IMG/VR virus record: IMGVR_UViG_3300034069_000341
Coordinates: 1-64,000 of that record
Source of the DNA: a virus
Direction: 5' to 3' (one strand)
DNA length: 64,000 bases
Shown piece by piece: positions 1 through 60,129 of the stretch (position 1 is the first letter of the stretch; every line of letters starts with the position of its first letter). The notes below the pieces were generated by a model. It ran no database searches. It was not told the DNA's origin and saw only the letters and a list, made by a program, of their open reading frames with translations. Both the position numbers and the translations under genes were made by a program.

Positions 1-140
1 GCCCTGTGCCCTGTGCCCTGTGCCCTGTGCCCTGTGCCCTGTGCCCTGTGCCCTGTGCCCTGTGCCCTGTGCCCTGTGCCCTGTGCCCTGTGCCCTGTGC
101 CCTGTGCCCTGTGCCCTGTGCCCTGTGCCCTGAGCCCTGT
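1..140. repeat. Tandem heptamer array (GCCCTGT)x20, one variant unit GCCCTGA at 127-133; truncated by window edge
   Basis: Read directly: perfect 7-nt periodicity from base 1 to 140, register ends at GCGGCGC. Confidence 0.95.
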
Positions 141-5812: not shown

Positions 5813-6337
5813 ATGATGAGCAAGGACGCAACTAGCACCGACGAGAAGGACGAGGCCGCAAAGGTCGCAACTGCTGAGTCGGAGGATTCTGAGGCCGCTG
5901 AGGAGACGGAGACCCCTGAGGTTTCCGAGGACGGCACCGAGGAATCCGGAGAGGATTTCCGCGCTAAGTACGAGGCTCAGCGAGAGCATTCTCGCACTTG
6001 GGAGTCTCGTGCTAAGGCCAACGAGAAGAAGTTGGAGAAGGAAATCCAGAAGAATCAGGACCTCACTAATGAGGTTGATTCGCTGAAGACGGAGATTGCC
6101 AACAAGGATCGAGAGGTCCTGGTGGCTAAGGTCTCCGCAGAGGAGGGCGTTCGCCCTCAGTTCCTCTCCGGCGAGACCGAGGAGGAACTTCGGGACTCGG
6201 CTAAGGTTTTTCTTTCCGAGTACCGTCCGGTGAAGAGCAATCCTGGTGGATATGTCGGATCGCACGGTAGTGCAGATGATTCGGCGACCAACACCGTTGA
6301 GAGTCCCGCTAAGCGTGCGGCTCGTTACAAGATTTAA
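5813..6337 (+). CDS. Scaffolding protein
   Basis: 174 aa, very acidic, Glu/Lys-rich coiled-coil character; between MuF-like and capsid genes. Confidence 0.6.
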   Translation: MMSKDATSTDEKDEAAKVATAESEDSEAAEETETPEVSEDGTEESGEDFRAKYEAQREHSRTWESRAKANEKKLEKEIQKNQDLTNEVDSLKTEIANKDREVLVAKVSAEEGVRPQFLSGETEEELRDSAKVFLSEYRPVKSNPGGYVGSHGSADDSATNTVESPAKRAARYKI

Positions 6338-33675: not shown

Positions 33676-34052
33676 GCAGTCTCCTTAAGTGAGTCGTAAA
33701 AGACACTCACCGCGCCCATTGCGAGGTGAATTGTCTCGTCTGTAGAGTATAGCACAGCCTTACCGGCCATTGCACGCAGGGACGCGCCCGAGTGAATCGC
33801 CGGGGCGTGGAGGAACGTGTACGCCGTGTTGGCATACAGGCCACTCTCCGAGAGGTCATTCAGATAGTACATCGCCTTGTCAAGGTCCTCTTGCCAGCCA
33901 CCCTTTGACCCAGCGCGATAGATGTACTTGAATGCGTTCCCCTGGGAGAATCCCAGCAGCCTCGAATAGTCAATGCACTCAGCCGTGAAACCCTCGGGGA
34001 ACACCGAGTAATGCGGCGGGTGGTTCACCATATCAGCCATTGACAGATGCAC
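33672..34052 (-). CDS. DUF3310-like protein
   Basis: 126 aa; HPPHY...ECIDY...GNAFKYIYRAG.KG...DL.KA.YYL pattern recalled for that family. Confidence 0.5.
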   Translation of the reverse strand: MHLSMADMVNHPPHYSVFPEGFTAECIDYSRLLGFSQGNAFKYIYRAGSKGGWQEDLDKAMYYLNDLSESGLYANTAYTFLHAPAIHSGASLRAMAGKAVLYSTDETIHLAMGAVSVFYDSLKETA

Positions 34053-34566
34053 CTCGCAGAGTAAGGATCAAGTATTCGAGAGAGGGACCCGTGTCAACGC
34101 CCTGTAGGTAGTTGACTAGGGCCTCGATGTGCCCATTGCGATACGCCCGGTAGGACTCATCCTCACCCTCCCAGAGTCGGTGATCCAGGTACAAGCGTTC
34201 CGCCGCCGCGAGTCCCTTACGCACCGAGTGTGGGTCCCAGTTGTCGAAGGCGAGCACGTTGAGCACATCGTCAATATCCGACGTGCCTCCTGAGGGTCGC
34301 TTCTCTGCCTGGTTCTCCGCACTGGTCACGGCGAGCAGATGCTCGGGTCTGACGCAGCTGCGGTTGTGGCAGGTGTGGTGGACGATCTGATCCGTAGCGT
34401 CCCCGACAAGCATCTCGTAGACGAGTCGGTGGGCCTTGTGGTTCTTGCCACCATACCATGCGCGACCGTAGCCGTCTGCTGTTCGTGCCTGAGTCCACTG
34501 CCAGCAGCCGTTATTAGCCACATAGACTCGGGCACTGAGCCAGTTCTCAAAGGGTGTAGTAGTCAT
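34033..34566 (-). CDS. HNH (HNH_3-type) homing endonuclease
   Basis: 177 aa; CWQW...GYGR...HRLVYE...VHHTCHNRSCVRPEHLLAVTSAEN. Confidence 0.75.
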   Translation of the reverse strand: MTTTPFENWLSARVYVANNGCWQWTQARTADGYGRAWYGGKNHKAHRLVYEMLVGDATDQIVHHTCHNRSCVRPEHLLAVTSAENQAEKRPSGGTSDIDDVLNVLAFDNWDPHSVRKGLAAAERLYLDHRLWEGEDESYRAYRNGHIEALVNYLQGVDTGPSLEYLILTLRGASVNG

Positions 34567-34605: not shown

Positions 34606-35827
<1,222 letters not shown>

Positions 35828-35856
35828 ATCAGTTCTCCTTTGTTCGTCAACGGGAA

Positions 35857-35910
35857 AGCCCCGCTTGCTGTGTGACTACACTGTAGCACATAGCAAGCGG
35901 GGCTTGTCAA
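35857..35910 (-). promoter_or_regulatory. Promoter-in-hairpin cassette (TTGACA-19-TGC-TACAGT inside 13-bp inverted repeat)
   Basis: Arms AGCCCCGCTTGCT 35857-35869 / 35892-35904; -10 at 35880-35885 in the loop; preceded by TTGTGACTTGACCAC. Confidence 0.55.
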
Positions 35911-35925
35911 CATCCGGTGGTCAAG

Positions 35926-36522
35926 TCACAATACCGTCCGCGCTGCTCGTGCCTCGCAGAGCGCCACGAAGGCGAGCAGCTCCGGGCGGGCTTCCTCGAT
36001 ATCCTCGGGCGGTGTCTCCACCCACTCGTCAGACTCGGCCAGGGCGCGCAGCTCCGGGATTGACCCTGACCAGCACCCCACCCGGACACGCCAGGAGCCG
36101 TCCCCCTGACGAAACGCTGTCACGCGGAGAGCTCGGGTGGTGTATATCACCCCGGTGAGGAAATGGGCGCTACCGTCGATCTGGGCGCTACCGTCGATCT
36201 GGGCAACGCCGGAGACCCTGGCGTTGCCGTAAACCCAGGCGCTGCCGGAAACCCAGGAGTCCCCGAAGATCCGGGCGTCGCCGTAAATCCAGGCGTCGCC
36301 AGAGGCGTGTGCTTCGCCGCCGATCCAGGAGCCACCGAAGATCCAGGCATCGCCGTAAATCCAGGCGTCTCCGTCCTGCGAGAGGTTGCTCTCAGACTCG
36401 ACCCACCCACCGAGGTCACCTGCCTGCACTCCGTGTCGCGGAATGTCCCGCAGGGCACGGATTCGGCGCAGGGTGCGACCGTACGGTTGGAAGGTCTCAT
36501 CTGTCAGTTCGTACTTGCTCAT
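35926..36522 (-). CDS. Hexapeptide-repeat (beta-helix-like) protein
   Basis: 198 aa; 12 consecutive hexads GDAWIY GDAWIF GGSWIG GEAHAS GDAWIY GDARIF GDSWVS GSAWVY GNARVS GVAQID GSAQID GSAHFL. Confidence 0.7.
   Translation of the reverse strand: MSKYELTDETFQPYGRTLRRIRALRDIPRHGVQAGDLGGWVESESNLSQDGDAWIYGDAWIFGGSWIGGEAHASGDAWIYGDARIFGDSWVSGSAWVYGNARVSGVAQIDGSAQIDGSAHFLTGVIYTTRALRVTAFRQGDGSWRVRVGCWSGSIPELRALAESDEWVETPPEDIEEARPELLAFVALCEARAARTVL
36160..36380. repeat. 18-nt periodic DNA repeats encoding the hexapeptide array
   Basis: e.g. GGGCGCTACCGTCGATCT x2 exact at 36163-36198, then diverged units. Confidence 0.8.
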
Positions 36523-36550
36523 ACTGTTCTCCTTTGCTCGTATACGGGGA

Positions 36551-36602
36551 AGCCCCCTGTCGTGTGCCCGTATAGTAGCACACGACAGGGGGCTGTGGTC
36601 AA
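36551..36602 (-). promoter_or_regulatory. Promoter-in-hairpin cassette (TTGACC-19-TGC-TACTAT inside 17-bp inverted repeat)
   Basis: Arms AGCCCCCTGTCGTGTGC 36551-36567 / 36578-36594; -10 36572-36577 in loop; -35 36597-36602; preceded by TTGTGACTTGACCAC overlapping nrdE stop. Confidence 0.55.
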
Positions 36603-36603
36603 G

Positions 36604-38703
36604 TCACAAGGCGCAGGATACACAGCCCTCGACCTCCGTACCCGAGAGCGCCGTCTGGCGCAAGCGAACGTAGTACAGGGTCTTGATCCCCTTGCGCCAC
36701 GCGTAAATCTGAGCGCGGTTAAGGTCTCGCGTGGTCGCATCGTCCTTGAAGAACAGAGTCATCGATAGGGACTGATCGACGTACCTCTGCGCGACGGAGT
36801 AGACGTCGATGATCTTCTCTGCCCCGATTTCGTACGCATCCTTGAACAGGTGCATGTTGTCCTCGGTGAGCCCAGGGGCCGGGTAGTACACTCGGCCCAG
36901 CTTACCTTCCTTCCTAATTTCCACTGGGGCAACCGCCGGATGGATGCTTGCCGTAGCGTGGTTGAGGTAGGAAATTGAGCCGGTTGGCGGGACGGCTTGG
37001 AGATAGGCGTTGTAGAGGCCATGCTCCGTGACGTCACGTTTCAGGGTCTCCCAGTCGGAGTTGGTCGGGATGTCGATACCCTCGAACAGGTGCGCGATGC
37101 TCGGGTCAAGAACCCAGTCCTCGGCGATCAGATCGTCAAAGAACTCCCCGGAGGCGTAGCGAGACTTCGGGAAGTCGGCATACGGGCTGCCAGTCTCCTT
37201 GGACAGTTCCATGCTTGCGGTGAGCGTGTGGAAGAGGATCATCCGGAAGTAGGCATCGGTGAATGCGATACTCTCTGGCGAGCCGTACTCCATCCCCGCC
37301 GAGGCAAAATAGCCGTGGAGGTTCATCTGCCCCAGGCCAATCGCTCGGGACATTTCGTTGCCGCGACGGATGGAAGGCACCGAGTCGATATCGCTCATGT
37401 CCGCAACTGCTGACAGGGCGCGTACGGCAGTATGGACCGTCTCTCCGGGATCGTCATGGCTCATCACGTTAGCGACGTTCAGGCTTCCAAGATTACACTG
37501 AATGTCCCGGCCCACGTGGGAATAAGACAGATCAGCATTGAACTCGGAAGGAGTAGTTACCTGTGCAATCTCTGAACACAAGTTACTTAGGGTAACCTTA
37601 CCTTCGTTCTGATGCGCCTTGTTCACCGAGTCCTCAAACATGATGTAGGGGTACCCCGATTCAAACTGCACCTCGGCGACCGTCTGAAGGAAATCACGTG
37701 CGCTGATCTTCTTCTTGCGAATTTCCGGGCGGTCAACCAGGTCGTAATAGATTTCCGAGACGTTCACGTAAGCAAACGGCTTGCCGTAGATTCGTTCGAC
37801 GTCATATGGGGAGAAGAGGTACATGTCCTTGTTAGCTCGCGCCAACTCGAACGTGATGTCGGGAATGACTACTCCAAGCGAAAGCGTCTTGATACGCAAC
37901 TTCTCGTCAGCGTTCTCTCGCTTAGTGTCAAGGAACTTCAGGATATCGGGGTGATGGGCGTGGAGGTACACCGCCCCGGCGCCCTGACGAGACCCTAGCT
38001 GGTTGGCGTAGGAGAACGAATCCTCCAGCAGCTTCATGACGGGGATGATGCCCGAGGACTGCCCCTCAATCTTCTTGATGGGTGCACCCTCCTCACGAAT
38101 ATTCGAGAGGCTCAGAGCCACGCCCCCGCCGCGCTTAGAGAGCTGAAGAGAAGAATTAATCGCTCGACCAATCGACTCCATGTTGTCCTGCACGTCCATA
38201 AGGAAGCACGAGACCATTTCGCCGCGCTGCTTTTTGCCTGCGTTCAGGAAAGTAGGGGTAGCAGGCTGAAATCGACCCGTGATGATTTCGGTGACGATGT
38301 TCTTGGCCTCAGAGGTGTTGCCCCGAGCGAGGTATAGCGCGACCATAGAAACACGGTCCTCGTAGCGTTCAAGGAATCGCTCACCATCGAAAGTCTTCAG
38401 CGCGTAAGACGTGAAGAACTTGTACGCTCCGAGAAAAGACTGGAAGCGGAACTTAAACGAGTACGCGTGCTTAAACACGTCCTTCACCGACTCGAAATCG
38501 TACTGGTCCAGGACCTCAGACTCGTAGTAATTATTCTCCTGGAGATAGTCAAGCTTCTCTCGGAGGTTCCCGAAATACACCGTATTCGGATTTACGTGCT
38601 CAAGGAAGTAAGCCTTAGCCGCCTCATTATCCTTGCCGATTTGCATGCGCCCGTCGGCATCGTAAAGATTTACCAATGCATTAAGGTTGTGATAATTAAC
38701 CAT
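36604..38703 (-). CDS. nrdE: Ribonucleotide reductase class Ib alpha subunit
   Basis: 699 aa; active-site NLCSEI, C-terminal CVSCAL pair; followed upstream by nrdI. Confidence 0.9.
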
Positions 38704-39093
38704 TCAGATAGTCCTCTCATCCATTTTGGTCAAGCCGTTTCTCACGGCGATTACGTCTTCGTCTGTACCGGCAAGCTCAAACCGGTAAAGCATGTCTACC
38801 CCGAGCTTATCGGCGATCTTCCGGGCGCTGATACCGTACAACTTGCCGAAATTCAGGTTGCCTGAACCCACGACACCTTGCAGCATATCACGGTTCTCCT
38901 GGTCACTCAAGAACCGCTTCACCTGCGGCGGGACGTCATTACGCCCAGTGCCATACGAAGGCACGACAAGCACATAGGGGATATACATGCGCGGGGGGTC
39001 GCCGTGAATGGGTATTCGAGTCCTAGACACGCCGAGCTTATCAACGAACCTCTTTGTATTCCCGGTGAGGTTACTGAAGTACACTACATGCAT
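38704..39093 (-). CDS. nrdI: NrdI flavodoxin-like protein
   Basis: Start set to ATG 39093 (MHVVYFSNLTGNTKRFV...); abuts nrdE. Confidence 0.8.
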   Translation of the reverse strand: MHVVYFSNLTGNTKRFVDKLGVSRTRIPIHGDPPRMYIPYVLVVPSYGTGRNDVPPQVKRFLSDQENRDMLQGVVGSGNLNFGKLYGISARKIADKLGVDMLYRFELAGTDEDVIAVRNGLTKMDERTI

Positions 39094-39098
39094 ACCGA

Positions 39099-40340
39099 TC
39101 ACTCTCCAATCTTCTCTAGGAACCAACGTTCAATCTCTTTGACCGTATGCTCAATACTATCAGACTCAGTTGCATGGTAGTCATGTCGGAACTGGTAAAA
39201 TCTGTCATGTGCCAAATTCAGATCGGGCAAATCGTTCTCCCGGATTCGGGCGTGAAGGATGTTATCCCCGAGGGACAGGAGGGCGCGCGACTTCTCGGTG
39301 TCCAATTCAGTCTTTTCCCGGTGCCAATAACTTCCATCGTACTCGACCAGTAGGTAGCGGTGGTTGTAGTAGAAGATCATGTCTACCTCGACTCCGACCC
39401 TTCCGGAGGCGTAGGTCAACTGATTTAGTCGCAGTCCGTGCGCGGTCAGGGTGAGTTCGGTTTGCTCAGTGAACGCCTCGATAAAGCGACCCTCGATCTG
39501 GCTAGTTCGTTTAGCACATTTTGGGCAGCCATTCCCAGTTGCCCGACTATCGACTCTCGCCTGCCAAGAGTGACCTTCAGCGCACTTCCACCAAGCCTTA
39601 TTATGGGAAGATGCGGATACATCCCCCGGAGTCAGTTCATTCCTATCGAAATCCCATTCTCGCGCCAGTTCAGGGTTATTAATTGACAACCTATTGGCAT
39701 CTGATGCCCGCCGACCACTACAAAAAGGACAGCCACTTCCTCTTGATCGGTCACCAATTATTGCCTGCCAGGAGTGATCGTCTGAACATATCCACCAAGC
39801 CGTCTTGTCAGAGGACACAGTTACGTCACGGGGGGTCAGTTCATTCTTAACGAAATCCCATTCCCTTGCGAGTTCAGGTCTATTGGTCGATAACCTATTA
39901 GTGTCTGTAACCCGTCGTCCGCTGCAAAAAGGGCACCCGCGCCCTCTTGACCGGTCACAAATTTTAGCCTGCCAAGAGTGCCCCTCCGAGCACGCCCACC
40001 AAGCCTTCTTATTAGAAGATATAGCTACCTCATCTGGAGTCAATTCATTTTTGTCGAAATCCCATTCTCTTGCGACCTCAGGATTGTTAATCGACAGACT
40101 GTTAGCGTCTGATACTCTGCGACCACTACAAAAAGGGCACCCCTTTCCACCTGACCGACTATTAATTGCTGCCTGCCAAGAGTGCCCGCTAGAGCACGCC
40201 CAAACCAACTTCATCCTGCTACCATGAGTCAAAGAGTCCAGTCTAGCATACGTCTCCGGGAACATCTCGGATGATCCGTCGTGGTCAATATCACCCCACA
40301 GCGCTACGTCCTTCAAGTACACCTTTTCCCGCGTAGCCAT
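39099..40340 (-). CDS. Four tandem zinc-ribbon (DUF4379-like) repeats fused to a C-terminal Vsr/DUF559-like PD-(D/E)XK nuclease domain
   Basis: 413 aa; W.C..GHSWQA......G.GCP.C every about 64 aa x4; C-end VEVDMIFYYNHRYLLVEYDGSYWH...D. Confidence 0.6.
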   Translation of the reverse strand: MATREKVYLKDVALWGDIDHDGSSEMFPETYARLDSLTHGSRMKLVWACSSGHSWQAAINSRSGGKGCPFCSGRRVSDANSLSINNPEVAREWDFDKNELTPDEVAISSNKKAWWACSEGHSWQAKICDRSRGRGCPFCSGRRVTDTNRLSTNRPELAREWDFVKNELTPRDVTVSSDKTAWWICSDDHSWQAIIGDRSRGSGCPFCSGRRASDANRLSINNPELAREWDFDRNELTPGDVSASSHNKAWWKCAEGHSWQARVDSRATGNGCPKCAKRTSQIEGRFIEAFTEQTELTLTAHGLRLNQLTYASGRVGVEVDMIFYYNHRYLLVEYDGSYWHREKTELDTEKSRALLSLGDNILHARIRENDLPDLNLAHDRFYQFRHDYHATESDSIEHTVKEIERWFLEKIGE

Positions 40341-40343
40341 AAA

Positions 40344-42278
40344 TCACAACCTCCACTTCTCCTTGTAGTTAGCAAATCCCCACGTGCCGTCAGCCTTGCG
40401 GTATCGAGCAATCGGTCCAGCGCCTTCCGCTGCAAGAGGGAAGTTGGACATCCAATTCGGTGCTGTCGTCATAATCTCACCGATCCGGTGCAGCTCGCTC
40501 TCGGTGCTCGCTTCAACGATCACCTCATCATGAACTGATCCTACAGTACGGAAGCCTTCACGGTCAAGGCGTACCAGCGCATCGGTGAGAACGTCCCTGG
40601 CGTACGCCTGAACCAAATTTTCGCAGATGATACCGCCCCATACCTTGACAGGAAACCCCTTCTTGCGGTAGTCCTTTCGGTAAATTACCTCCTGCTCTTT
40701 TCCAGTGAAGGGGTTGACCTCGGTGCGCTTAGTGCAATTCCTATAAACAATGCTGCGCCCAGAAGGCAAAACCAAATGACGATTCGATCCATCCTTGAAG
40801 AAGGACACGTCACCGACTGACCCGCCTTCCTTGAACGCTGTCATAAGGTCCCGCCAGTATTGGACGATACTCTCATTAGCGTTTCGCCACTTGTAGACGA
40901 TATCCATGAGGTCCTCGTCAGTACCTGGGGCACCGAATGCCTTGAGCGCACCCTTAGAGCCGCCGTATCCGAGTGCAAGAGTTGCGATCTTGCCTTGCTT
41001 GCGGTACTTGGCCTTAGCCTCTTCGTATGAAACATCATACATTCGAGACGCCGCAGAAGAGTACAGGTCCTCTCCGCTGAAGAAGGCGTCAATCGCCCAC
41101 TGCTCACCGGCCAAATGTGCCAGGACCCTGGCCTCGATTTGGCTATAATCCACGACGGCGAAAGGCCCAACAAGCGATGAACGAATCATTCGCTTCAAAT
41201 CCACCTGGGGAGTTGAGAGTCCCAACTTCAAGTCAATGATCCGGGCTTCAACTTCGGTGTCATCATCAGCGATGCCCTCGGAGGGTAGATTCTGCAACTG
41301 AAGCCTGCGCCCCGAGAAGCGTCCGGTGTGCGCCCCGTAGTACATGAGCGTACCTCGGATTCGACCGTCAGAACTCACCGAGTCAAGTTCCGCCTGGTAC
41401 TTGGCCGACGACGACAGGGCCACATGCTGCCGGAGTTCAAGCACCTCTCGAACATCGGCGGGAAGATCGTCCTGCTCCAAGAACTCCTCGACCGCAGCCT
41501 TATTGAGCGAATCGACCTCAAGACCCTGCTCTCGGAGCCAGCCACCCAACTGCGAGACCGAGTTGGGGTTAGGCAGGTCGGTGAGTTCCGCCATGCGGTC
41601 AAGAGCCGTTTGCTTGTTGCTCTCGGACATGGCAACCGCTGCTAGGGCCATATCGACGTCGATCCTCACTCCGCGATCATTCGTTCGCTCAGAGACATGC
41701 CACGTCTCCACCTCGAAATCGGTGACCGAAGGCTTGAGCTTCTTGTGGATATCGCGCATCGCGATAACATCTTGCGCACAATAGTCTACAAAGGATTGCC
41801 ACCGCTCGATATCATCTTCCGGTGTGCGGAAGGTTCCGTCCTTTTTCGGGGTGCAGAAGAACCTAATAAGCGCCGAACCCGCCTCGTCCTTGAGTTCTCC
41901 TCCCATAGCCTTAGCAAGTTCCTTCAGCGACAGCGGAAGCCCAGACCACGCGGCAAGCACCATCGTGTCCTCAAAGACCTCGGGAGGAATATACGAACCG
42001 ACCGGCATTCCGATGTAAGACGAGAAGCACACGCGCTCGAACCCGGTGTTATGGGCGATGACCTTGAAGTCCTCACCGCGATCGTGTCGCTCAAGGATAT
42101 CTCGGATGATGCCCCGCATCTCATCGGGGTCCGTGCTCGTCTGCATCGGCTCGTCATTCCACGCCCATGCAAGCATGAGGATATCGAACTTCTCGTCCTC
42201 GGCGTATCGGTAGACGCCCGTCTTCTTCAGGTCTGCGCCTGAGCGCGTCTCGATATCGAGATAAAGGCAGTCACCCAT
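40344..42278 (-). CDS. Family A DNA polymerase with 3'-5' exonuclease domain
   Basis: Exo I LYLDIETRS; motif A VVDYSQIEARVLA; motif B RKQGKIATLALGYGGS; motif C GSVHDEVIVE; start set to ATG 42278 (MGDCLYLD). Confidence 0.9.
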   Translation of the reverse strand: MGDCLYLDIETRSGADLKKTGVYRYAEDEKFDILMLAWAWNDEPMQTSTDPDEMRGIIRDILERHDRGEDFKVIAHNTGFERVCFSSYIGMPVGSYIPPEVFEDTMVLAAWSGLPLSLKELAKAMGGELKDEAGSALIRFFCTPKKDGTFRTPEDDIERWQSFVDYCAQDVIAMRDIHKKLKPSVTDFEVETWHVSERTNDRGVRIDVDMALAAVAMSESNKQTALDRMAELTDLPNPNSVSQLGGWLREQGLEVDSLNKAAVEEFLEQDDLPADVREVLELRQHVALSSSAKYQAELDSVSSDGRIRGTLMYYGAHTGRFSGRRLQLQNLPSEGIADDDTEVEARIIDLKLGLSTPQVDLKRMIRSSLVGPFAVVDYSQIEARVLAHLAGEQWAIDAFFSGEDLYSSAASRMYDVSYEEAKAKYRKQGKIATLALGYGGSKGALKAFGAPGTDEDLMDIVYKWRNANESIVQYWRDLMTAFKEGGSVGDVSFFKDGSNRHLVLPSGRSIVYRNCTKRTEVNPFTGKEQEVIYRKDYRKKGFPVKVWGGIICENLVQAYARDVLTDALVRLDREGFRTVGSVHDEVIVEASTESELHRIGEIMTTAPNWMSNFPLAAEGAGPIARYRKADGTWGFANYKEKWRL

Positions 42279-42480
42279 CAATCCTCCAAGCGATTCGCTG
42301 CATTGTCCGCTGAGCCATATACGCGGCTGTCGGTGAGTCATATGGCCCAGTTCGCCACATACCGTCAACGACCTGTACCCCTGCATAGTACTTCATCGGC
42401 TCAGGGTCACGCAACCCAGCCTCCACTCGCCACGATGACTCTAGACCTTCGGTGGGGTGATACGTCTTCTCGTTGTCCAT
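42271..42480 (-). CDS. Hypothetical protein
   Basis: 69 aa, AAAGGAGAAC RBS, overlaps polymerase start. Confidence 0.5.
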   Translation of the reverse strand: MDNEKTYHPTEGLESSWRVEAGLRDPEPMKYYAGVQVVDGMWRTGPYDSPTAAYMAQRTMQRIAWRIDG

Positions 42481-43525: not shown

Positions 43526-43831
43526 TCAGACTGCAACTACGCCCTTTAGCGTAGGGTGAGGATTATACCCTGTCACCTTGAAGTTGTCAATGGTGAAGTC
43601 ATCAATGTAATCAATGTTATCAACGTCACCGACAATCTCAAGTTCGGGGAGGGGCACGTGCTCCCGGCTCAACTGCTCCTTCACCTGGTCTCGGTGATTG
43701 TCGTAGATGTGACAATCACCTCCGACCCAGATGAGCCTACCGACACCATACCCGGTGACGTGAGCCACCATGTGAGTCAGCAGCGCATACGATGCCAGGT
43801 TGAACGGTACACCGAGGAACATGTCTGCGGA
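43526..43831 (-). CDS. thyA: Thymidylate synthase, exon 2 (proposed)
   Basis: SADMFLGVPFNLASYALLTHMVA...GGDCHIY...HP motifs continue ThyA exactly where exon 1 stops. Confidence 0.8.
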   Translation of the reverse strand, partial: SADMFLGVPFNLASYALLTHMVAHVTGYGVGRLIWVGGDCHIYDNHRDQVKEQLSREHVPLPELEIVGDVDNIDYIDDFTIDNFKVTGYNPHPTLKGVVAV

Positions 43832-44887
43832 CTTTTCCTTCGCCTGTGTTCGCTAGGCACAGACCGCCATACGGCTGCTGCATGTCGCCATGCAGAAGAG
43901 ACTATATCACGACCCCTAGGGGTCCCCACCATTTCCGCCCGCTTGGGCGTACTCCCTTTCGGGATAGTCGTTAGGCATTTATGAATCTAGGTCAGACCAT
44001 TTACTCCACTTATCAGACTTGGAGGCTATGCGATTACCCACCGTTGCTACGGCAATTCCGTAGTACTTGGCCGCAGCGGTTCTAGATGGATAAACAGTAC
44101 CCTCGATTACTACGGCTTTGGTGTTCGGAGGTAAAACCCCCAAACGAGCGATAGAGAGTGCCCTTTTTGTCTCTTCAGTGTGCTTCTTTCCGTAGAAGGA
44201 GTTTTTATCCCCAGTACGTTCAGAGGCCACCTTGGACAACTTCTCTCGTTGCTCCGGAGTACGCTTATGCCCCTTAGCCCAAGAGTTACCCAAAGCCCGT
44301 TCACGGGCAGCTGATTTTACTTCGTCGGAGTGAGTCCTACCAGTCATTCCGTTAATATGGCTCCCGTGGATAACCTTACGATCTTCCGGAGACATTGACT
44401 CGTAGCGCTCATTAATAGCGTCCGTAATTCTACTTACTATATCGTCCCGATCAGGATTGAACGTTAGATTATCTCCGCAAGTAGATGGACCTATATTATA
44501 CAAGTCCTTCCCCCGCCCAGAATCTAAAAGACTCTGTTCAGCGAATACCGCGTCCTCCAAGTTTTCAACCTCAGACAAGATTGAAAACGTGAACGCGGGT
44601 TCTCCGAATTCACCCCAGTCCCTTTGGAGACTTGAATTGTGGTGTGTATTGTTCCGGAGGTCTGACTTGTGCCTACTCGTCCGTGCACGGTATCTTGATG
44701 TCCTACCAACATACCGCTTGCCATTAACAGTGTTCTTGATTTCGTAGATGATGTATGTCATGCGTACATCATACCACACTTTTGAAAGGTAGTCCCAGAT
44801 TCAATTTAGCACGGGATCGTCTGCTAGAGAGGTTCCCCGTTTAGATGGGTTTGCTACGCCGGTTTCCCGACGAAGGCGCTCTTACGA
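43832..44887 (-). mobile_element. Group I intron (T4 td-like, about 1056 nt) in thyA
   Basis: Separates two halves of ThyA; carries GIY-YIG ORF; core strings CUAAACGGGGAACCUCUCUAG.AGAC.AUCCCGUGCUAAAUUG and AUAAAUGCCUAACGACUAUCCC...GAUAUAGUCU.CU.UGCAUGG.GACAUGCAGC; U at -1 and terminal G at the proposed splice sites. Confidence 0.8.
43979..44761 (-). CDS. Intron-encoded GIY-YIG homing endonuclease (I-TevI-like architecture)
   Basis: MTYIIYEIKNTVNGKRYVGRT...; three NUMOD3-like GRTHSDEVKSAAR / GHKRTPEQREKLS / GKKHTEETKRALS; C-terminal HTH-like AAKYYGIAVATVGNRI. Confidence 0.8.
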   Translation of the reverse strand: MTYIIYEIKNTVNGKRYVGRTSRYRARTSRHKSDLRNNTHHNSSLQRDWGEFGEPAFTFSILSEVENLEDAVFAEQSLLDSGRGKDLYNIGPSTCGDNLTFNPDRDDIVSRITDAINERYESMSPEDRKVIHGSHINGMTGRTHSDEVKSAARERALGNSWAKGHKRTPEQREKLSKVASERTGDKNSFYGKKHTEETKRALSIARLGVLPPNTKAVVIEGTVYPSRTAAAKYYGIAVATVGNRIASKSDKWSKWSDLDS

Positions 44888-45406
44888 ACGCTGGTAGACC
44901 TGGATCGACAGAACATCATCTTCCTCCACGTAGAACTGGAACATGATGTGACACGGTGCCAGCGCCATTTCCGGAATCGCCGTAGGATTCCACGTGGACA
45001 CAACGTGTCGGCGGGAGTACGGGTCGGTCTTGACGGACTCGATCACCTGAGCAATCTGGTCAACGCCGGGAATCAGCCCGTAGTCATCGTAGTCCTCGCC
45101 CCACCGCCTCCACTGGAACCCGTACATAGGTCCAATGTAACCGTACTTGTCTGCCCACTCGTCCCAGATATGAACGTCGCGATCCTGAAGATACCTAATG
45201 TCCTCCTCCCCTCGGAGGAACCACAGCAGCTCCTCGGCAACCAGACGGAACGGGACTCGCTTGGACGTGATGAGCGGGAACCCGTTTCGCAGGTCATACT
45301 CAATGCGACCCCCGAAGAGCGATGTAGTCCCAGTACCAGTCCGGTCGGGACGACTACTGCCCTCCATCAGGACTTCTCGTAGCATGGTCTCATAGGAGTT
45401 AGCCAC
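44888..45406 (-). CDS. thyA: Thymidylate synthase, exon 1 (proposed)
   Basis: GTG start after GGAGG; DRTGTGT, FPL.T.KR, DEWAD, ALAPCH catalytic Cys, ends ...VYQR. Confidence 0.85.
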
Positions 45407-45682: not shown

Positions 45683-46149
45683 CGGTCATCACCAGACCCG
45701 GTGATCTTACCCCGGTCTCGGCGAGACTGCAACTTAGCGAGGTTCATCTCAAGCACCTCGTCAAGCGTGTAGCCGACTCCGTGAGCAAGAGTCGCAATGG
45801 CGTCAAACAGGTCAGGGAAGTCAGTCCGAATGGTCGCATCAAGTAGGTCATCTACCCATCCCGTAAGTGTCCGGGCAGAATATATGACCTCTGCGTCGTT
45901 GAGATGAGTCGTGAAGTCGTCCCCGGCATCCATGAACATAGCGGACGATGCGACGAACCAGATGACGTCACCGAGTTCCTTGGCAACTGCCGTCTTGTCG
46001 AGTTCGGTCTCGTCCCGAATCGACTTAGCCGCAAGACTAACCAACTCACCGACCTCGCCCCACAGACCCAGTGACAGGTAATTCACATCCCGCGCCGAGG
46101 GGAGCGCAAACTCCCATGCCTGCTCAGCGTAAGTGTCTCGAATACTCAT
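45679..46149 (-). CDS. MazG-like nucleoside triphosphate pyrophosphohydrolase
   Basis: LWGEVGELV ... ELGDVIW (EXXE...EXXD pattern). Confidence 0.7.
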   Translation of the reverse strand: MSIRDTYAEQAWEFALPSARDVNYLSLGLWGEVGELVSLAAKSIRDETELDKTAVAKELGDVIWFVASSAMFMDAGDDFTTHLNDAEVIYSARTLTGWVDDLLDATIRTDFPDLFDAIATLAHGVGYTLDEVLEMNLAKLQSRRDRGKITGSGDDR

Positions 46150-46150
46150 A

Positions 46151-47272
46151 TCAGTTCTCCTCCTTTTCCCGGACCAACTTTGGTCCTCCTCCTGTATACC
46201 CTAGCGTGTCACCCAGCAGAGTGTCAAGGTCATCTCCGTCTTCCATGACCTTCTTCAAGGCAGTGATGCCGTTGACCTTCACCGAAGCGATCTGGTCAAA
46301 ATAATACCCGGCTTCCTGAAGCCTGTCAATAGCCCCATCGGAGTCCAGAATCTTCCGCGTACCCCGACCCTGATCCACTCGGTAGCCGGGGATATCCTCG
46401 AACTCAGCGCGCAGCAGAGCATTGGCCTTCACCTGCTCAATCCACTTCTGGATATCAGGCAACTTGGGCAGGACCTCCGCAATGTCCTTGCCCTTCATCA
46501 TCTCCGGCTCAGTACCGAAGTCGTGGCGCAACTCCATCGCCGCACGAGCCTTGCAGAAGCCCGCAGCGGGGCACCAACGGCAGTTGGACGCCGAAGGGGC
46601 CAGATGACCATGCGAGGACAGAGCCTCACGCGCAGCCGGGGCCACAACCTCATCAGCCCAGAACTGAAGCCACTGGGACGTCACCGAGTAGGACGACACC
46701 CCATCACGGACTCGGGGCTGATATACGCTGACGATCACTCGCTCGGCGTCAGGGTGGAACTTCCTCATGGCCCCAAGGCCGTAGAGGAGCAACTGGGGGT
46801 TGCGCTCGGCGGACACGGGGACCCCAGAGCCGTACTTGAAGTCGATCACATGGATAGTCTTCTCGGAGACCAGAATAGCATCTGCCGTTCCCCACACCTC
46901 GGGGATTCCGGTCTCAACGCGCTCCTCGAAGAAGTACGTCTCGGCGTTCATGAACTCCGACTGCTCGAAGATGAAGTCCGCGTATCCCTGCGCGTGCCCC
47001 ATCATCTCTCGGTGACGCGCAGGGTCAACGCCGTACTCCGGCTTGAACTCGTGGTCCTCCCAGGCAGTGAGCATGTGATCTACTGACTCACCCATGGCCC
47101 TACGGGCCAGAATCTCACCGAGTGAGTGGGCGATAGTGCCCTCAGTGGCCCACGGCGATCCTTCGTCCGTTTGCACAGCGTGCTCAGACATTCGCAGCGA
47201 CCCAGGGCAGTTGATCCACCGATGGGCGCTAGACGGACCCAAGCGTGCGTGCTTAGTCGGTTCGTCAGTCAT
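46151..47272 (-). CDS. Cas4/RecB-family PD-(D/E)XK exonuclease with Fe-S cysteines
   Basis: Start set to ATG 47272 (MTDEPTKHARLGPSSAHRWINCPGS); IHVIDFKYG; C-terminal CRWCPAAGFC (C-x2-C-x5-C). Confidence 0.7.
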   Translation of the reverse strand: MTDEPTKHARLGPSSAHRWINCPGSLRMSEHAVQTDEGSPWATEGTIAHSLGEILARRAMGESVDHMLTAWEDHEFKPEYGVDPARHREMMGHAQGYADFIFEQSEFMNAETYFFEERVETGIPEVWGTADAILVSEKTIHVIDFKYGSGVPVSAERNPQLLLYGLGAMRKFHPDAERVIVSVYQPRVRDGVSSYSVTSQWLQFWADEVVAPAAREALSSHGHLAPSASNCRWCPAAGFCKARAAMELRHDFGTEPEMMKGKDIAEVLPKLPDIQKWIEQVKANALLRAEFEDIPGYRVDQGRGTRKILDSDGAIDRLQEAGYYFDQIASVKVNGITALKKVMEDGDDLDTLLGDTLGYTGGGPKLVREKEEN

Positions 47273-47839: not shown

Positions 47840-47860
47840 GGTGCCGCCTTTCCTTGCAAG

Positions 47861-47936
47861 TCCCCCTGCCCGGACTCGAACCGGGATCACATTTATTTTG
47901 AGTAAATGCCCTCGTGCCTAATTGGGGTACAGGGGG
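47861..47936 (-). tRNA. tRNA, anticodon loop CUCAAAA (anticodon CAA, Leu-type) but short 5-nt variable region
   Basis: Hand fold: acceptor CCCCCUG/CAGGGGG, A73, anticodon stem AUUUA/UAAAU, T-arm CCCGG-UUCGAGU-CCGGG. Confidence 0.75.
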
Positions 47937-48014: not shown

Positions 48015-48016
48015 CG

Positions 48017-48087
48017 TCCCCTTCCCCGGACTCGAACCGGGACTGTCACGGTTATTCCCGCTGCCTCTGCCGTTGGGCTAGAAGGGG
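48017..48087 (-). tRNA. tRNA-like gene, 71 nt, anticodon loop appears 6 nt (GAAUAA)
   Basis: Acceptor CCCCUUC/GAAGGGG, A73, T-arm CCCGG-UUCGAGU-CCGGG perfect; anticodon arm GCGG/CCGU. Confidence 0.45.
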
Positions 48088-48138
48088 TGGTGCCGGACTT
48101 TCACCGGCTGCGCTAGATTCTAGCACGTAGTATGGCGA

Positions 48139-48300
48139 TTAGTCAACATCGCCATAGTAGGCCTCGGTGATCCACCACTTAGGCGCGGGGTAGTCCCCGA
48201 GGCGATCCTCAGCGTACCGAAGGTCCTCCTCAGTCATCTCCTTGATGGATTCCAGGTCCTCGTCAGTCAGGGACCCGTTGGGGTCAGAGTTCTCAGTCAT
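48139..48300 (-). CDS. Hypothetical acidic 53-aa protein
   Basis: Hand-translated MTENSDPNGSLTDEDLESIKEMTEEDL...WWITEAYYGDVD; 8-nt overlap with upstream gene; stop lies in a 9-bp hairpin. Confidence 0.45.
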   Translation of the reverse strand: MTENSDPNGSLTDEDLESIKEMTEEDLRYAEDRLGDYPAPKWWITEAYYGDVD

Positions 48301-52216: not shown

Positions 52217-52855
52217 TCACTCGACGCGTTCCCCACGAGTCCACGGTCCCAAGACCGGCTTGAGGCGGCGGACGGCATCAGGTGTCCATGCCCAGCCAGC
52301 CCTGCGAGTCTCTTCGGCGTACCAACACCACCGGTAGTCCAAGTGGCCGATCCACTCCCACCCACGAAGGTGCTCGTCGTCGTCGGGCCACTCGCCCACC
52401 TCGATGCGCTCCGGCACCTCGGGGGTCTCGTCGGGCCAGCGGGGCGGGTCCGACACGATGACCTGACGACCACCAGCGCGGGACAGGACCTCCTCCCAGC
52501 CTATCCAGTCGCCGTTGACGGCGCGGATCGGCGGCATATCTTCCGGGTCAGCGACGACTCCCAGCAGCTCGCGGGACTCTTTGATCCAGATGCACTGCCC
52601 GAGGATCGTGGGTTCGTCCGGCTGCACCACCGGAGGCGGGGTGATGACCTTGACCGGGACGTGTCGGTAGGCGCACTTGACGCCCCTCTCCACCGTCGCC
52701 AGCTTCACCAGTATCGAGTCGTCATGCTTGATCCTGTCGAGCCGGAGCCTGTGGATGATGCCCTCGATCGGCCCGACCTCGATGAATGCTCCCAGGTAGT
52801 CGTCCGTCAGATCACCCACCGTCAGGGTGTCACCTGCGTTGATCTTCTTGCTCAT
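52217..52855 (-). CDS. Paralogue-family protein A (unknown function)
   Basis: 212 aa; N-end MSKKINAGDTLTVGDLTDDYLGAFIEV aligns with 53464 and 54123 genes. Confidence 0.55.
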   Translation of the reverse strand: MSKKINAGDTLTVGDLTDDYLGAFIEVGPIEGIIHRLRLDRIKHDDSILVKLATVERGVKCAYRHVPVKVITPPPVVQPDEPTILGQCIWIKESRELLGVVADPEDMPPIRAVNGDWIGWEEVLSRAGGRQVIVSDPPRWPDETPEVPERIEVGEWPDDDEHLRGWEWIGHLDYRWCWYAEETRRAGWAWTPDAVRRLKPVLGPWTRGERVE

Positions 52856-52879
52856 GTTATTCTCCCTTGCTCGTCTTCA

Positions 52880-53116
52880 TCAGTACCGCTCCCCAAGCAC
52901 TCGCATCCTGTGCTCTACGACCATCTTAGCAAGGTCGAAAGCCTTGTCAAGGTCTACGTTCTCCTCCACATTAAGAATCTTCATGGACTCCCGCATGTCC
53001 GCTGCGACCTGCTCAGTCAACTCCCGAAGGGTCGAGAGTTCGGAAACAGGGTCCACCTCGACCTCACCGTAGTGTCGCTCCTGGTCCTCGTAGTCTCCGA
53101 AAACGTCTGTTGCCAT
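52880..53116 (-). CDS. Small acidic protein, paralogue of 53142-53381
   Basis: Start set to ATG 53116; leader CGAGCGAAGGAGAAGCATAGATATGG nearly identical to that of its neighbour. Confidence 0.5.
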   Translation of the reverse strand: MATDVFGDYEDQERHYGEVEVDPVSELSTLRELTEQVAADMRESMKILNVEENVDLDKAFDLAKMVVEHRMRVLGERY

Positions 53117-53141
53117 ATCTATGCTTCTCCTTCGCTCGTCT

Positions 53142-53381
53142 TCACTTGTTCTCCTCAACATATCGGACAGTGATTCCCCGTAGGTCCTTCCTCGCCTGCT
53201 TAAGGATCTGGTCAAGATCGTCGTCAAGCAACTGCTCGTCATCAGGAAGGTCCTCAAGCCAATCGGGGTCAAGGGTCTCCACAAGATCAGACGCGCACAT
53301 CAAATCTCCCGCTGCGTCCAGTACATCTTCCATGTACTCAGTAGCCATTCTACGGATTTCCGAATCAGTCAGATTTCCCAT
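53142..53381 (-). CDS. Small acidic protein
   Basis: Start set to ATG 53381 (MGNLTDSEIRRMATEYMEDV...); leader CGAGCAAAGGAGAAGCATAGATATGG. Confidence 0.5.
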   Translation of the reverse strand: MGNLTDSEIRRMATEYMEDVLDAAGDLMCASDLVETLDPDWLEDLPDDEQLLDDDLDQILKQARKDLRGITVRYVEENK

Positions 53382-53416
53382 ATCTATGCTTCTCCTTTGC
53401 TCGTCTTGCTCGGTGG

Positions 53417-53467
53417 GCCTCACGGCCTGTAGTACAAGAGTATACAGGCCGTGAGGCGTGGGGTCAA
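53417..53467 (-). promoter_or_regulatory. Promoter-in-hairpin cassette (TTGACC-17-TATACT with 15-bp inverted repeat)
   Basis: Arms GCCTCACGGCCTGTA 53417-53431 / 53443-53457; -10 53439-53444; -35 53462-53467 overlapping the stop of the upstream gene. Confidence 0.6.
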
Positions 53468-56108: not shown

Positions 56109-56447
56109 TCATCGCAATCCATTCTCTCGCGCGTGCTTCTCTACCTCACGGACAAGTCGGTCAATGTCGCTTGCCTTTGGGCCGTATCCGAACTCATCAT
56201 CGTAGTCTGTGGACTCATCCCGCAGTCCCCGGACCACGCCGCGCCACGACTTCGGGGAGGGTAGATTATAGGCAAACCACTCGAACTCGTTGCAACTGCA
56301 ACCGGCCTGTTCGTCCCAATAGTAATTCTGGGTGCCAGGTGAATAACACACCTGAATTTCCCACCACTCCCACCCTCCACCAGAAGCCATTGCCACAAGC
56401 TCCCAGTCCTCAGTGCCGGGGACGTGGCTACCTTCGTAATCTTCCAT
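56109..56447 (-). CDS. Hypothetical Trp-rich acidic protein; first gene of the - block
   Basis: 112 aa, GAGGAGAAC RBS. Confidence 0.5.
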   Translation of the reverse strand: MEDYEGSHVPGTEDWELVAMASGGGWEWWEIQVCYSPGTQNYYWDEQAGCSCNEFEWFAYNLPSPKSWRGVVRGLRDESTDYDDEFGYGPKASDIDRLVREVEKHARENGLR

Positions 56448-56486
56448 ATCAGTTCTCCTCGCTCTCGACTTCCTCGTACACCGAGC

Positions 56487-56514
56487 ATCCTACCACACGA
56501 TCCGACGAGCGCAA
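56487..56514 (-). promoter_or_regulatory. Promoter TTGCGC-16-TGG-TAGGAT (leftward)
   Basis: -10 56487-56492, -35 56509-56514; about 40 nt upstream of 56447 start. Confidence 0.5.
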
Positions 56515-56672
56515 CCCCCACTCCCCGAGGGGGTCGTGAGGTCATGCTGTGATAGTCTCAGTTGACCGACTGGCCATCTGGGAGTCCATGACTTGTTTCA
56601 GCCTTTTTTGTGCCCTATGTCACAGCCTCATGAGAGCCAGTGCAGACCTTCACCGTTGGACGCTCACGGACT

Positions 56673-56702
56673 GTCACACTGTGAATTTAGTCACAGTGTG
56701 AC
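56673..56702. promoter_or_regulatory. 12-bp-arm palindrome GTCACACTGTGA-ATTTAG-TCACAGTGTGAC (candidate operator)
   Basis: Perfect inverted repeat centred in the divergent intergenic region; GTCACA half-sites recur nearby. Confidence 0.5.
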
Positions 56703-56740
56703 CTTCTGACGACCTCCGGCCCCCACGATATAGGAACCTA

Positions 56741-56749
56741 TGGTATAGT
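56741..56749 (+). promoter_or_regulatory. Extended -10 promoter TGGTATAGT (rightward)
   Basis: About 90 nt upstream of 56840 gene. Confidence 0.5.
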
Positions 56750-56839
56750 GGACGTATACACGGGGGGATCTCCATCCCCCCGAGACCCTGAGACCTACAG
56801 GTTCTCTGCAACACAACCCGAAAAAGAAGGAGCAACACA

Positions 56840-57046
56840 ATGCCAGCTGCTACCCCCGAACTAAACCGAGCATCCACTCGAATCCACTACTGGGCCGATA
56901 CCCTGAATCTCGACATCATCCGCAATAAGGGAAGCTGGACGCTGATCGACCCTCAAAAACCTGAACTTCTGGCCTACCGCCTGGACTCCCCGGAGATGGA
57001 AGACTTCCTGGCCCGTATGCGCGCTCGCGGTGCGCAAGCATCATGA
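56840..57046 (+). CDS. Hypothetical protein; first gene of right arm
   Basis: 68 aa, AAGGAG RBS. Confidence 0.5.
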   Translation: MPAATPELNRASTRIHYWADTLNLDIIRNKGSWTLIDPQKPELLAYRLDSPEMEDFLARMRARGAQAS

Positions 57047-59854: not shown

Positions 59855-59941
59855 TAAGAAGCCGGGATTCACTCAAAGTCAGTTTTTGGGAAAGTGGAAT
59901 CCGGCCGCATCCGCATGATTCCGGGCTTTTTCGCACCCTTA

Positions 59942-60000
59942 GACCCCGCGTTCCACTATACCCCCCCCCCTTTAGGGGGGGTATAGTGGAACGCGGGGTC
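59942..60000. repeat. 26-bp perfect inverted repeat (hairpin/cruciform)
   Basis: GACCCCGCGTTCCACTATACCCCCCC-CCCTTTA-GGGGGGGTATAGTGGAACGCGGGGTC. Confidence 0.95.
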
Positions 60001-60129
60001 GTGGGGGGCGAAGCCCCGGTTGTTTAATAAGGGTAGCCTAAGTTGTTTGAAGAGCGAGTTGTGCCCGGAGAAGCGGAGGGTGATCTTCTCCTCGGTGGGC
60101 CGGTCGCTTCGCAGGGAGCGGGGATCTAC

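Follow-up and report, generated by a model that had tools for sequence, protein, structure and literature searches.

The genes for the large and small subunits of class Ib ribonucleotide reductase (RNR), nrdE and nrdF, are separated by an accessory gene in the phage DNA analyzed here, which raises the question of how such a gene can enter or leave an essential operon without breaking it. The DNA, called the window throughout, is a stretch of 64,000 nt taken from IMG/VR virus record IMGVR_UViG_3300034069_000341 (positions 1 to 64,000). On its - strand, a gene for a 198-aa YdcK-type beta-solenoid protein (35926-36522; Pfam PF18836, E = 2e-10) lies downstream of nrdE (36604-38703; 699 aa; Pfam RNR_N, Ribonuc_red_lgN and Ribonuc_red_lgC, E = 3e-162) and is bordered on each side by an element of ~85 nt that spans the gap from a stop codon to the following start codon and in which a promoter-like sequence, a GC-rich hairpin and a leader with a Shine-Dalgarno sequence (SD) are packed together. 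These two elements, designated cassettes A and B, are probably composite gene-boundary expression cassettes of an uncultured actinobacteriophage, and the solenoid gene is a variable cargo of the slot between nrdE and nrdF. In 15 related contigs from independent samples this one slot was found in at least eight arrangements, and every junction fell on a short repeat at a gene boundary.

The original prediction made for this locus was that nrdE and the gene following it end with the same 15-mer. Exactly two exact copies of this sequence, TTGTGACTTGACCAC, were found in the window, both on the - strand (36595-36609 and 35917-35931) and each holding a Leu codon, a TGA stop and TTGACC. Copy 1 takes in the last codon and the stop of nrdE, and its TTGACC (36597-36602) is by direct reading the -35 of cassette A, 19 nt before the hexamer TACTAT; the same -35 is present in L074, one of the compared contigs, which are referred to by L numbers. 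In copy 2, which holds the Leu codon and stop of the solenoid gene, TTGACC stands outside promoter distance, 12 nt upstream of the -35 of cassette B, TTGACA (35905-35910); the 15-mer, described earlier as covering a -35-like TTGACC in both copies, supplies a -35 in the first only.

The -35 of cassette A is followed on the - strand by a perfect 17-bp stem with a 10-nt loop (36551-36567 / 36578-36594), the loop holding the -10 TACTAT (36572-36577) with TGC just before it, and then by a leader (36523-36550) that reads TTCCCCGTAT, ACGAGCAAAGGAGAA (36527-36541, with the SD) and CAGT ahead of the ATG. The -35 of cassette B, also read directly, stands 19 nt before TACAGT and is invariant in eight genomes. 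Its hairpin (35856-35874 / 35887-35905, - strand) has a 19-bp stem with one A.C mismatch, to which an RNA fold adds four inner pairs; the apex holds the -10 TACAGT (35880-35885), again with TGC just before it, and the leader (35828-35855) reads TCCCGTTG, ACGAACAAAGGAGAA (35833-35847, with the SD) and CTGAT before the ATG. All elements of the common layout described earlier were recovered in their places, except that the stem of B had been drawn as 13 bp. The two cassettes have in common the leader ACGA(G/A)CAAAGGAGAAC, 27 nt out of the 31 that follow as 3' flank, and both stem ends, outer (AGCCCC/GGGGCT) and inner (TGTGC/GCACA), and judged by these sequences they are clearly related.

Relatives of the window were found via its polymerase, which gave classes of 90-94% and ~63% identity, and via an 83-aa protein, which gave 21 protein clusters. 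The 15 related contigs belong to metagenome assemblies of ENA and Logan, one or more of them labelled human skin. The 83-aa protein is encoded by a second gene between nrdE and nrdF (open reading frame, ORF, MDDKT...RIDDK; 35576-35827, - strand), where a single gene had been assumed; the solenoid gene itself had been taken for a hexapeptide gene, and its Pfam match is to the YdcK beta-solenoid repeat and not to a classical hexapeptide transferase. The 83-aa ORF was kept in all relatives (70-89% identity across the clusters) and is a paralog of an 89-aa gene in L071 and L074 (35% identity, E = 2e-9). With genes given by their length in aa, the slot reads nrdE, B, 83, nrdF in L084 and L085; nrdE, B, 77, 46, nrdF in L082; nrdE, B, 89, 83 in L070, L071 and L083; nrdE, B, 63, 83 in L088; nrdE, A, solenoid-198, B, 83 in the window; nrdE, A, solenoid-283, B, 89, 83, 46 in L074-L078 and L080; solenoid, B, 83 in L089, where the upstream side is off the contig; and nrdE, D, 222, 33, leader only, 77 in L081, where D is a further cassette.

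The solenoid gene has orthologs of 283 aa in L074 and, as the C-terminus of one, in L089. It is absent from L070, L071 and L082-L085, and L088 and L081 have instead the 63-aa and the 222-aa gene, respectively. In every relative the border YTGTGACYTGACCMC stands after nrdE. Genomes that lack the solenoid gene carry a single copy, directly after nrdE, and L070, L071, L082-L085 and L088 read nrdE, YTGTGACYTGACCMC, cassette B. Among the carriers, the window and L074 have the border on both sides of the gene, and L089 shows the downstream copy only. Presence or absence of the gene exactly at the repeated border, the comparison put forward with the original prediction, was thus found among relatives with two copies and with one. 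At the copy-2 position the border reads CTGTGACCTGACCCC in L074 and ATGTGACCTGACCCC in L089. The full identity of the two 15-nt borders holds in the window and is specific to that genome, since the copies in L074 agree at 12/15 positions; among the relatives three positions vary, in all combinations. Both border Leu codons are TTG in the window, and most relatives have CTG (L082 also has TTG, and L089 ATG). The 15/15 identity, including TTG twice, hints that one border was recently copied from the other; the border polymorphism weakens it as proof of such a gene conversion, and it is kept as suggestive only.

Crossover points were located in the border and leader parts of the cassettes and not in the promoter or hairpin. 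The edges of the module in L081 (cassette D with the 222-aa and 33-aa genes) are the nrdE stop and the leader, with the right junction in CGTTGACGAACAAAGGAGAAC. The 46-aa gene, present in L082 and in L074 (18375-18601), where it lies between the 83-aa gene and nrdF, is marked by a perfect 37-nt direct repeat, CCGCATTGACGACAAGTAAGGAGACACAGATGACTGA, which runs from the end of the upstream ORF across the SD to the start; the 89-aa gene is bounded by a ~27-nt repeat and the 63-aa gene by the 14-nt AGGAGAACGACATG. The suggestion that the solenoid gene was inserted by recombination between cassettes is therefore upheld in that the indel edges coincide with them, and qualified in that the event may have been a gain or a loss and in that the junctions are in the border and leader repeats, with the hairpin not emerging as the driver. 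The general rule would be exchange at short repeated gene-boundary sequences, and the promoter-hairpin cassettes may be the boundary versions that arrive with foreign, self-expressed cargo. Presence of the solenoid gene does not track relatedness. The window, which has the gene, is closest to L071, which lacks it (91% polymerase identity), and is 63% identical in the polymerase to L074, which has it; several events or horizontal transfer are therefore indicated. The slot provides a natural experiment on how accessory genes are shuffled in tailed phages without breaking operons.

Exact non-tandem repeats of at least 15 nt amounted to 27 pairs in the window, against ~2.6 in simulated sequence, and were mostly at gene boundaries. 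Apart from the slot, translation-initiation regions of 16-24 nt are identical among unrelated genes, e.g. GAGGAGAACTGATATGGA; these exact repeats were located at 35823-35839, 46147-46162 and 56443-56460, at 53113/53378 and at 55219/55623, and are potential crossover sites of the kind seen between nrdE and nrdF.

The association of hairpin and promoter was compared with chance expectation by listing the strong hairpins (17) and the matches to TTGACN-16..19-TANNNT (19) on both strands of the window. The apex lay 6 nt or less from a -10 in 3 of the 17 hairpins; ~0.07 such cases are expected if the two are independent, and none was seen in 20 simulated sequences. Fold z-scores against shuffles were -6.55 for A, -5.19 for B and -5.04 for cassette C (see below), and the RNA fold energies of A and B were -45.3 and -43.4 kcal/mol. 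From the -35 to the SD, cassette B is 95-99% identical in eight genomes from different samples, and the 55-nt core of promoter and hairpin is identical in six of the eight; in the same comparison the flanking coding sequences show 83-88% (nrdE 3' ends), 78-87% (83-aa gene) and 75-97% (nrdF) identity. Changes in cassette A between the window and L074 are confined to the loop and the closing pair, and a C-to-T change in L082 repairs the sole mismatch of stem B. When the stems of A, B and D were aligned at the apex and tallied, both sides had changed in 7 of 14 pairs and 97% of cells were paired, compared with 21-57% in slid controls; the result is weakened in that the alignment was anchored by hand and the paralogous stems were known beforehand to be self-complementary. 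Cassette C was excluded because MAFFT could not align it with the other three. Taken together, the stem changes point to selection on base pairing, of RNA or DNA, and not on one protein-binding sequence.

A third copy with 17-nt spacing had been predicted at 53417-53467 and was confirmed in all its parts as cassette C (53377-53467, - strand). Its -35 TTGACC (53462-53467), which contains the upstream TGA stop (53464-53466), is followed after 17 nt by the -10 TATACT (53439-53444), the stem is a perfect 15-bp inverted repeat (53417-53431 / 53443-53457), and the ATG is at 53379-53381; the promoter scored 10/12 in a promoter scan. The leader ACGARCAAAGGAGAA is found at 36527-36541 in A, 35833-35847 in B and 53390-53404 in C, ending 4-8 nt ahead of the ATG. 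Allowing up to 3 mismatches, it was matched 10 times in the window against 2.35 expected, a count that none of 100 shuffles reached. Two of its copies with one mismatch (53125-53139 and 52860-52874, - strand) stand before small early genes with no promoter or hairpin.

Cassette D, from L081, consists of TTGACA, a 19-nt spacer and TACATT at the apex of a perfect 18-bp stem, CCCCGCCGATGTGCTACA / TGTAGCACATCGGCGGGG, that is unrelated in sequence and has the same layout as the others. An AT-rich stretch, GGTACGTAACATAACTTCATA, is peculiar to D, the -35 of the other three (A, B and C) abutting or overlapping the stop of a GC-rich ORF. The 222-aa cargo that follows D shows distant homology (28% identity, E = 2e-9) to a window ORF at 52217-52855, which adjoins the other cassette cluster. 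A variant, cassette E (48117-48159, - strand), was found upstream of tRNA genes; its 12-bp hairpin (48128-48159) carries in the loop the -35 TTGACT (48141-48146), which the upstream TAA stop abuts, and 18 nt further on, TGC-TAGAAT (48117-48122) lies with its -10 at the apex of a short palindrome, GCTAG-aat-CTAGC. The tRNA genes are a tRNA-Leu(CAA) (47860-47936, - strand) and a second tRNA-like gene (48016-48087, - strand) with an aberrant anticodon loop (ARAGORN); an 18-nt exact repeat is common to both. In A, B, D and E the -10 comes directly after TGC, and what is common to the arms of the four cassettes A-D is limited to their CCCC/GGGG ends and TGTGC/GCACA. The family is small, comprising A, B, C, D and the one variant. 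All copies are on the - strand, in the early, replication and nucleotide-metabolism arm (35-54 kb), with 3-5 copies in 64 kb and no dense array in the 10-kb flanks of relatives.

As we infer their working, the cassettes would each comprise a host sigma-A-type promoter (TTGACa/c with an extended -10, TGnTAnnnT), a GC-rich inverted repeat and an unstructured SD leader. Their hexamers fit the Corynebacterium glutamicum sigma-A consensus, ttgnca / TAnnnT (PMC5483222). The promoter would re-initiate transcription for the downstream gene. The predicted transcript start is ~7 nt past the -10, inside the right arm, and a transcript begun there would lack the hairpin and leave its SD free; in all four predicted promoter-initiated leaders the SD was unpaired. 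Small hairpins predicted in the same four 5'-untranslated leaders were no better than shuffles (z -0.2 to +0.5) and were dropped. Read-through transcripts from upstream would carry both arms and fold into the hairpin, and because only read-through RNA has both arms, the hairpin would have to act on such transcripts or on DNA. On read-through RNA it could be an attenuator, a weak terminator, or a structure that stabilizes or processes the 3' end of the upstream message. That it couples termination with initiation or occludes the -10, as put forward with the original prediction, would be conjecture. A role in attenuation or RNA-end formation is proposed tentatively; attenuation or 3'-end stabilization or processing would rank before an operator function, and that before a cruciform.

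In this scheme each gene would become a semi-autonomous unit with repeated edges, the border YTGTGACYTGACCMC at its stop codon and the leader with the SD at its start codon. Recombination between edge repeats could insert, delete or replace gene-plus-cassette modules and leave the expression of the neighbors intact, and would in this way have placed the solenoid gene between two cassettes in the nrdE-nrdF slot. A variant that had lost the solenoid module would be expected to read nrdE joined directly to CGGATGTTGACA. Such compact (~85 nt) insulated units could, if active, serve in the engineering of Corynebacterium or Mycobacterium phages.

Several observations weigh against this scheme. The 19-nt spacer of A and B exceeds the usual 17 +/- 1, so their -35 may contribute little, and neither was called in a promoter scan with 16-18-nt spacers; an extended -10 (TGn) can make up for a long 19-nt spacer. 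The stem of cassette C is degraded in L074 with its hexamers kept (TTGACA / TATGCT), the inner stem of B is damaged in L084, and in L081 neither the promoter nor the hairpin of B is left; the hairpin is thus not strictly required. No T-tract follows stems A, B and C (0-3 T in the following 9 nt), which makes efficient intrinsic termination doubtful, and a terminator scan of the window did not list them; several other hairpins of the phage do have a T-tract. The indels of the 89-aa, 46-aa and 63-aa genes use repeats of SD, start or stop with no hairpin, and because short boundary repeats suffice for recombination, the hairpins may be bystanders. Finally, a search with a degenerate cassette pattern found no isolate genome that carries the cassettes.

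One rival explanation is that the hairpins are ordinary transcript-end structures of the upstream gene (terminators, RNase III sites or 3'-protection) which, for want of intergenic room and with no functional coupling, overlap compact promoters, and that ordinary recombination at any short repeat, or the many homing endonucleases and inteins of the locus, drives the flux of genes with no special role for the cassettes. The three slot indels at hairpin-free repeats (37 nt, ~27 nt and 14 nt), the abundance of exact short repeats at gene boundaries genome-wide, the mosaic identity to L071 (71% in nrdE vs 87% in polA) and the decay of the C hairpin in L074, where the promoter persists, all speak for it, and the locus is crowded with HNH, DUF4379 and GIY-YIG genes, with inteins in L074. 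We nevertheless consider this explanation unlikely. Four independent cassettes, each with another stem, have the apex on the -10, and three of the four share the 19-nt spacing, where random overlap predicts ~0.07 cases. Each inserted foreign gene, the solenoid gene as well as the 222-aa gene, brings its own promoter-in-hairpin; the solenoid family is bracketed by cassettes in an unrelated phage too (see below); and the absence of T-tracts speaks against simple terminators.

It is quite unlikely that the inverted repeats are instead operators for a dimeric phage or host regulator over the -10, which would repress or time these internal promoters, with base pairing irrelevant and the symmetry a mere reflection of that of the protein. 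A regulator over the -10 is classical repression geometry, and an inner palindrome, TGTGC(TAC)...(GTA)GCACA, is centred on the -10 and common to A, B and D, as GCTAG-aat-CTAGC lies over that of E. Comparable repeats in Cluster K mycobacteriophages, the extended start-associated sequences (ESAS), were judged to be protein sites, and departures from their consensus were not compensatory (PMC3203893). Beyond the inner 5 bp, however, the arms of A-D are unrelated and yet each is perfectly self-complementary, with both sides changed in half of the pairs tallied, and arms of 17-19 bp far exceed one half-site. The extended -10 accounts for the left half that they share, TGTGCTAC, and complementarity to it for the right half. 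An NrdR operator was rejected: the box, whose consensus we take to be acaCwAtATaTwGtgt, had 0 matches anywhere in the window even when 3 mismatches were allowed. Reading the inner TGTG...CACA as a CRP/GlxR site was rejected by inspection, the spacing being 10-12 nt and not 6.

That the shared 15-mer and layout are a coincidence or a functional convergence, with no shared history or recombination, is very improbable even though a search that allows up to 3 mismatches shows no excess of the 15-mer (2 found vs 1.6 expected) and a polymorphic border could give 15/15 from shuffled common alleles, because function is no explanation for a copy-2 TTGACC not used as a -35, A and B are also alike in their 3' flank and in the outer and inner ends of their stems, gene-less relatives carry exactly one border at the predicted junction, and TTG stands at both Leu codons in the window where most relatives have CTG.

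Among known systems, the ESAS and the start-associated sequences (SAS) of Cluster K mycobacteriophages are the closest published analogue. In these phages a conserved leader stands at start codons and is preceded in about half of the cases by ~17-bp inverted repeats, which Pope et al. 2011 favored as protein-binding sites (PMC3203893); the repeats contain SigA-like hexamers 17-18 bp apart, as set out in a 2024 study of phage Adephagia (PMC11373665), and ESAS function is still unproven (PMC12699233). In Mycobacterium phage Anaya (L090, JF704106), TTGACA was found in the left ESAS arm and, 18 nt further downstream, TACTGT where the loop meets the right arm, which agrees with the promoter reading for Adephagia (PMC11373665). 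Both kinds of element occur in actinobacteriophages and only in the non-structural (early) arm. The Cluster K leader, with its SD, is 3-9 nt before the start codon and the leader here is in an equivalent position; the imperfect ~17-bp repeats with a ~4-14-nt spacer and SigA-like hexamers correspond to arms of 17-19 bp with 10-12-nt loops here. They differ in that Cluster K arms follow one consensus per subcluster with uncompensated departures, whereas the arms here differ and are compensated; in that the Cluster K -35 is inside the left arm with a spacer of 17-18 nt, whereas here it is outside the stem at 19 nt (A, B and D); in the leader, a 13-bp SAS GGGATAGGAGCCC as against ACGARCAAAGGAGAA; and in number, 7-19 copies per Cluster K genome as against 3-5. 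No link of ESAS to indel junctions has been reported. The compensatory stem changes, missing from the ESAS literature, point to nucleic-acid structure and not only to a protein site.

The original prediction had likened the arrangement to the promoter-early stem-loops (PeSLs) of T4-type phages, in which a stop codon is followed by an AT-rich region, a sigma-70 promoter, a stem-loop in variable position, the SD and the ATG (PMC2839356); the stem-loop is commonly between the hexamers or overlaps the -10 (PMC2839356; PMC4122927). PeSLs lie at the limits of indels and give rise to mini-circles (Arbiol et al. 2010, PMC2839356; Comeau et al. 2014, PMC4122927). The resemblance holds for the layout and for the coincidence with indels (PMC2839356): the order of stop, promoter, stem-loop, SD and start is the same, both flank accessory ORFs and bound indels between close relatives, and stems with G/C runs (GGGG...CCCC) are typical of PeSLs and present here. 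The family here is small and not a dense array like those of T4 hyperplastic regions. PeSLs are numerous and clustered in hyperplastic regions, and the cassettes here are few, although the nrdE-nrdF slot is itself hyperplastic with its eight states. PeSLs belong to T4-like myoviruses of Gram-negative hosts, and neither phages nor sequences are related; the AT-rich element is missing in A, B and C; and the promoter and terminator activities and the mini-circles of PeSLs were shown experimentally. By analogy, the cassettes may work like T4-type PeSLs, which would extend the idea of promoter and stem-loop cassettes from T4-like phages to an uncultured actinophage lineage in human-skin metagenome assemblies.

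Two further systems are more distant. The morons of lambdoid and HK97-like phages, as reportedly described by Juhala and Hendrix in 2000, are accessory genes with their own promoter and a flanking hairpin, inserted in a conserved operon. Insertion between two operon genes and presence or absence among relatives are common to morons and the solenoid module. Morons are typically expressed from the prophage and have a canonical terminator, whereas the phage here looks lytic and its hairpin overlaps the promoter and has no U-tract. The 17-bp palindromes of Cluster O mycobacteriophages (PMC4351075) are likewise repeated dyad-symmetric elements in an actinophage genome; they are invariant, mostly off promoters and not in indels, the reverse in each of these three respects of the cassettes here. 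The finding is a further case of a described phage regulatory and recombination cassette, and no new kind of system; its instructive points are the compensated stems and the eight natural arrangements of one slot.

An independent parallel is provided by two unrelated viral contigs of ~45% GC, L008 and L009, in which a solenoid homolog is bracketed by a 65-nt direct repeat, 98% identical (5928-5992 and 6638-6702 in L008). The repeat, which also occurs in L009, L086 and L087, consists of a TTGACG-16-TAAACT promoter in a 10-12-bp hairpin and an SD. This bracketing strengthens the cargo idea. A search for the L008-type cassette without a cargo gene found none and returned the same two contigs only. 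In L001, a stem-loop is present in the promoter spacer upstream of its solenoid homolog. Because the beta-solenoid family is bracketed both in the window actinophage and in L008, cassettes of promoter-in-hairpin and leader might be a general vehicle for accessory ('moron') genes across very different phage lineages, which we regard as doubtful. Such a vehicle would have a pairing-selected hairpin, centred on the promoter, that insulates the module transcriptionally and marks the site of circle excision and single-crossover re-insertion, leaving the cargo between two cassettes. If this were true, ESAS, PeSLs and the cassettes here would be convergent solutions to one problem, and ESAS motifs would gain a testable function.

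The window has a GC content of 57%, with structural genes on the + strand (~1-29 kb) and genes for replication and nucleotide metabolism on the - strand (~30-56 kb). No close deposited phage was found at the DNA level, megablast with three large pieces returning nothing or short unrelated matches. The portal protein is at most 37% identical to that of any deposited phage; the best matches were Arthrobacter phages and the nearest all actinobacteriophages. IMG/VR searches with NrdE and the solenoid protein returned distant phages only, and a search with PolA returned one partial contig, L069. A 15-kb stretch of L018, from a Logan assembly, is 100% identical to the window and represents the same phage; the polymerase cluster was also found on a 69-kb contig. 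The degenerate cassette pattern was matched in one extra metagenome contig, in 0 viral contigs and in 0 of 185,579 species genomes, and its absence from the last leaves no host clue. Rfam gave no match at any cassette. A Microbacterium phage record is only 65% identical to the window over the RNR genes and does not bear on the finding.

Around the slot, the - strand carries polA (40344-42386), a DUF4379 ORF (39099-40340), nrdI (38704-39126), nrdE, the slot genes, nrdF (34606-35565; 319 aa from the ATG at 35565; Pfam Ribonuc_red_sm, E = 3e-90) and an HNH gene (34033-34566). The nrdF start was chosen after the gene calls in L018 and L071. The DUF4379 ORF, between polA and nrdI, encodes a treble-clef zinc finger with four internal repeats. 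Among relatives it is split in two in L070 and L071 and shorter in L083 and L084, and an unrelated 213-aa ORF takes its place in L081; it looks like another variable, possibly endonuclease-like element. In the relatives with ~63% polymerase identity, nrdE contains an intein with a LAGLIDADG domain (L074 13593-16856, 1087 aa) and nrdF is doubled to 660 aa (L074 18571-20553), probably by another intein; both genes are intein-free in the window.

The thymidylate synthase gene, thyA (43526-45406, - strand), is split by a GIY-YIG/NUMOD3 endonuclease gene; it is intact in L074 (272 aa) and split differently in L070. A group I intron match below threshold (Rfam, 21 bits) was obtained at 43878-44069, and 43876-43990 is 85-86% identical to unannotated Bacillus phage DNA; a mobile group I intron is the probable cause of the interruption. 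Within the 3' exon/intron region of thyA, 43562-43590 (- strand) reads as a perfect consensus promoter, TTGACA-17-TATAAT (12/12). The intergenic region between divergent leftward and rightward genes (56447-56840) holds a candidate operator at 56673-56702, a perfect 12-bp palindrome, GTCACACTGTGA-N6-TCACAGTGTGAC. The longest hairpin of the window (59930-60012) is intergenic, with a 26-bp perfect stem (59942-60000), C7/G7 at the apex and no T-tract. Positions 1-132 are a perfect tandem array of the heptamer GCCCTGT in ~19 copies, which could be a genome-end or packaging repeat or an assembly artefact at the contig end.

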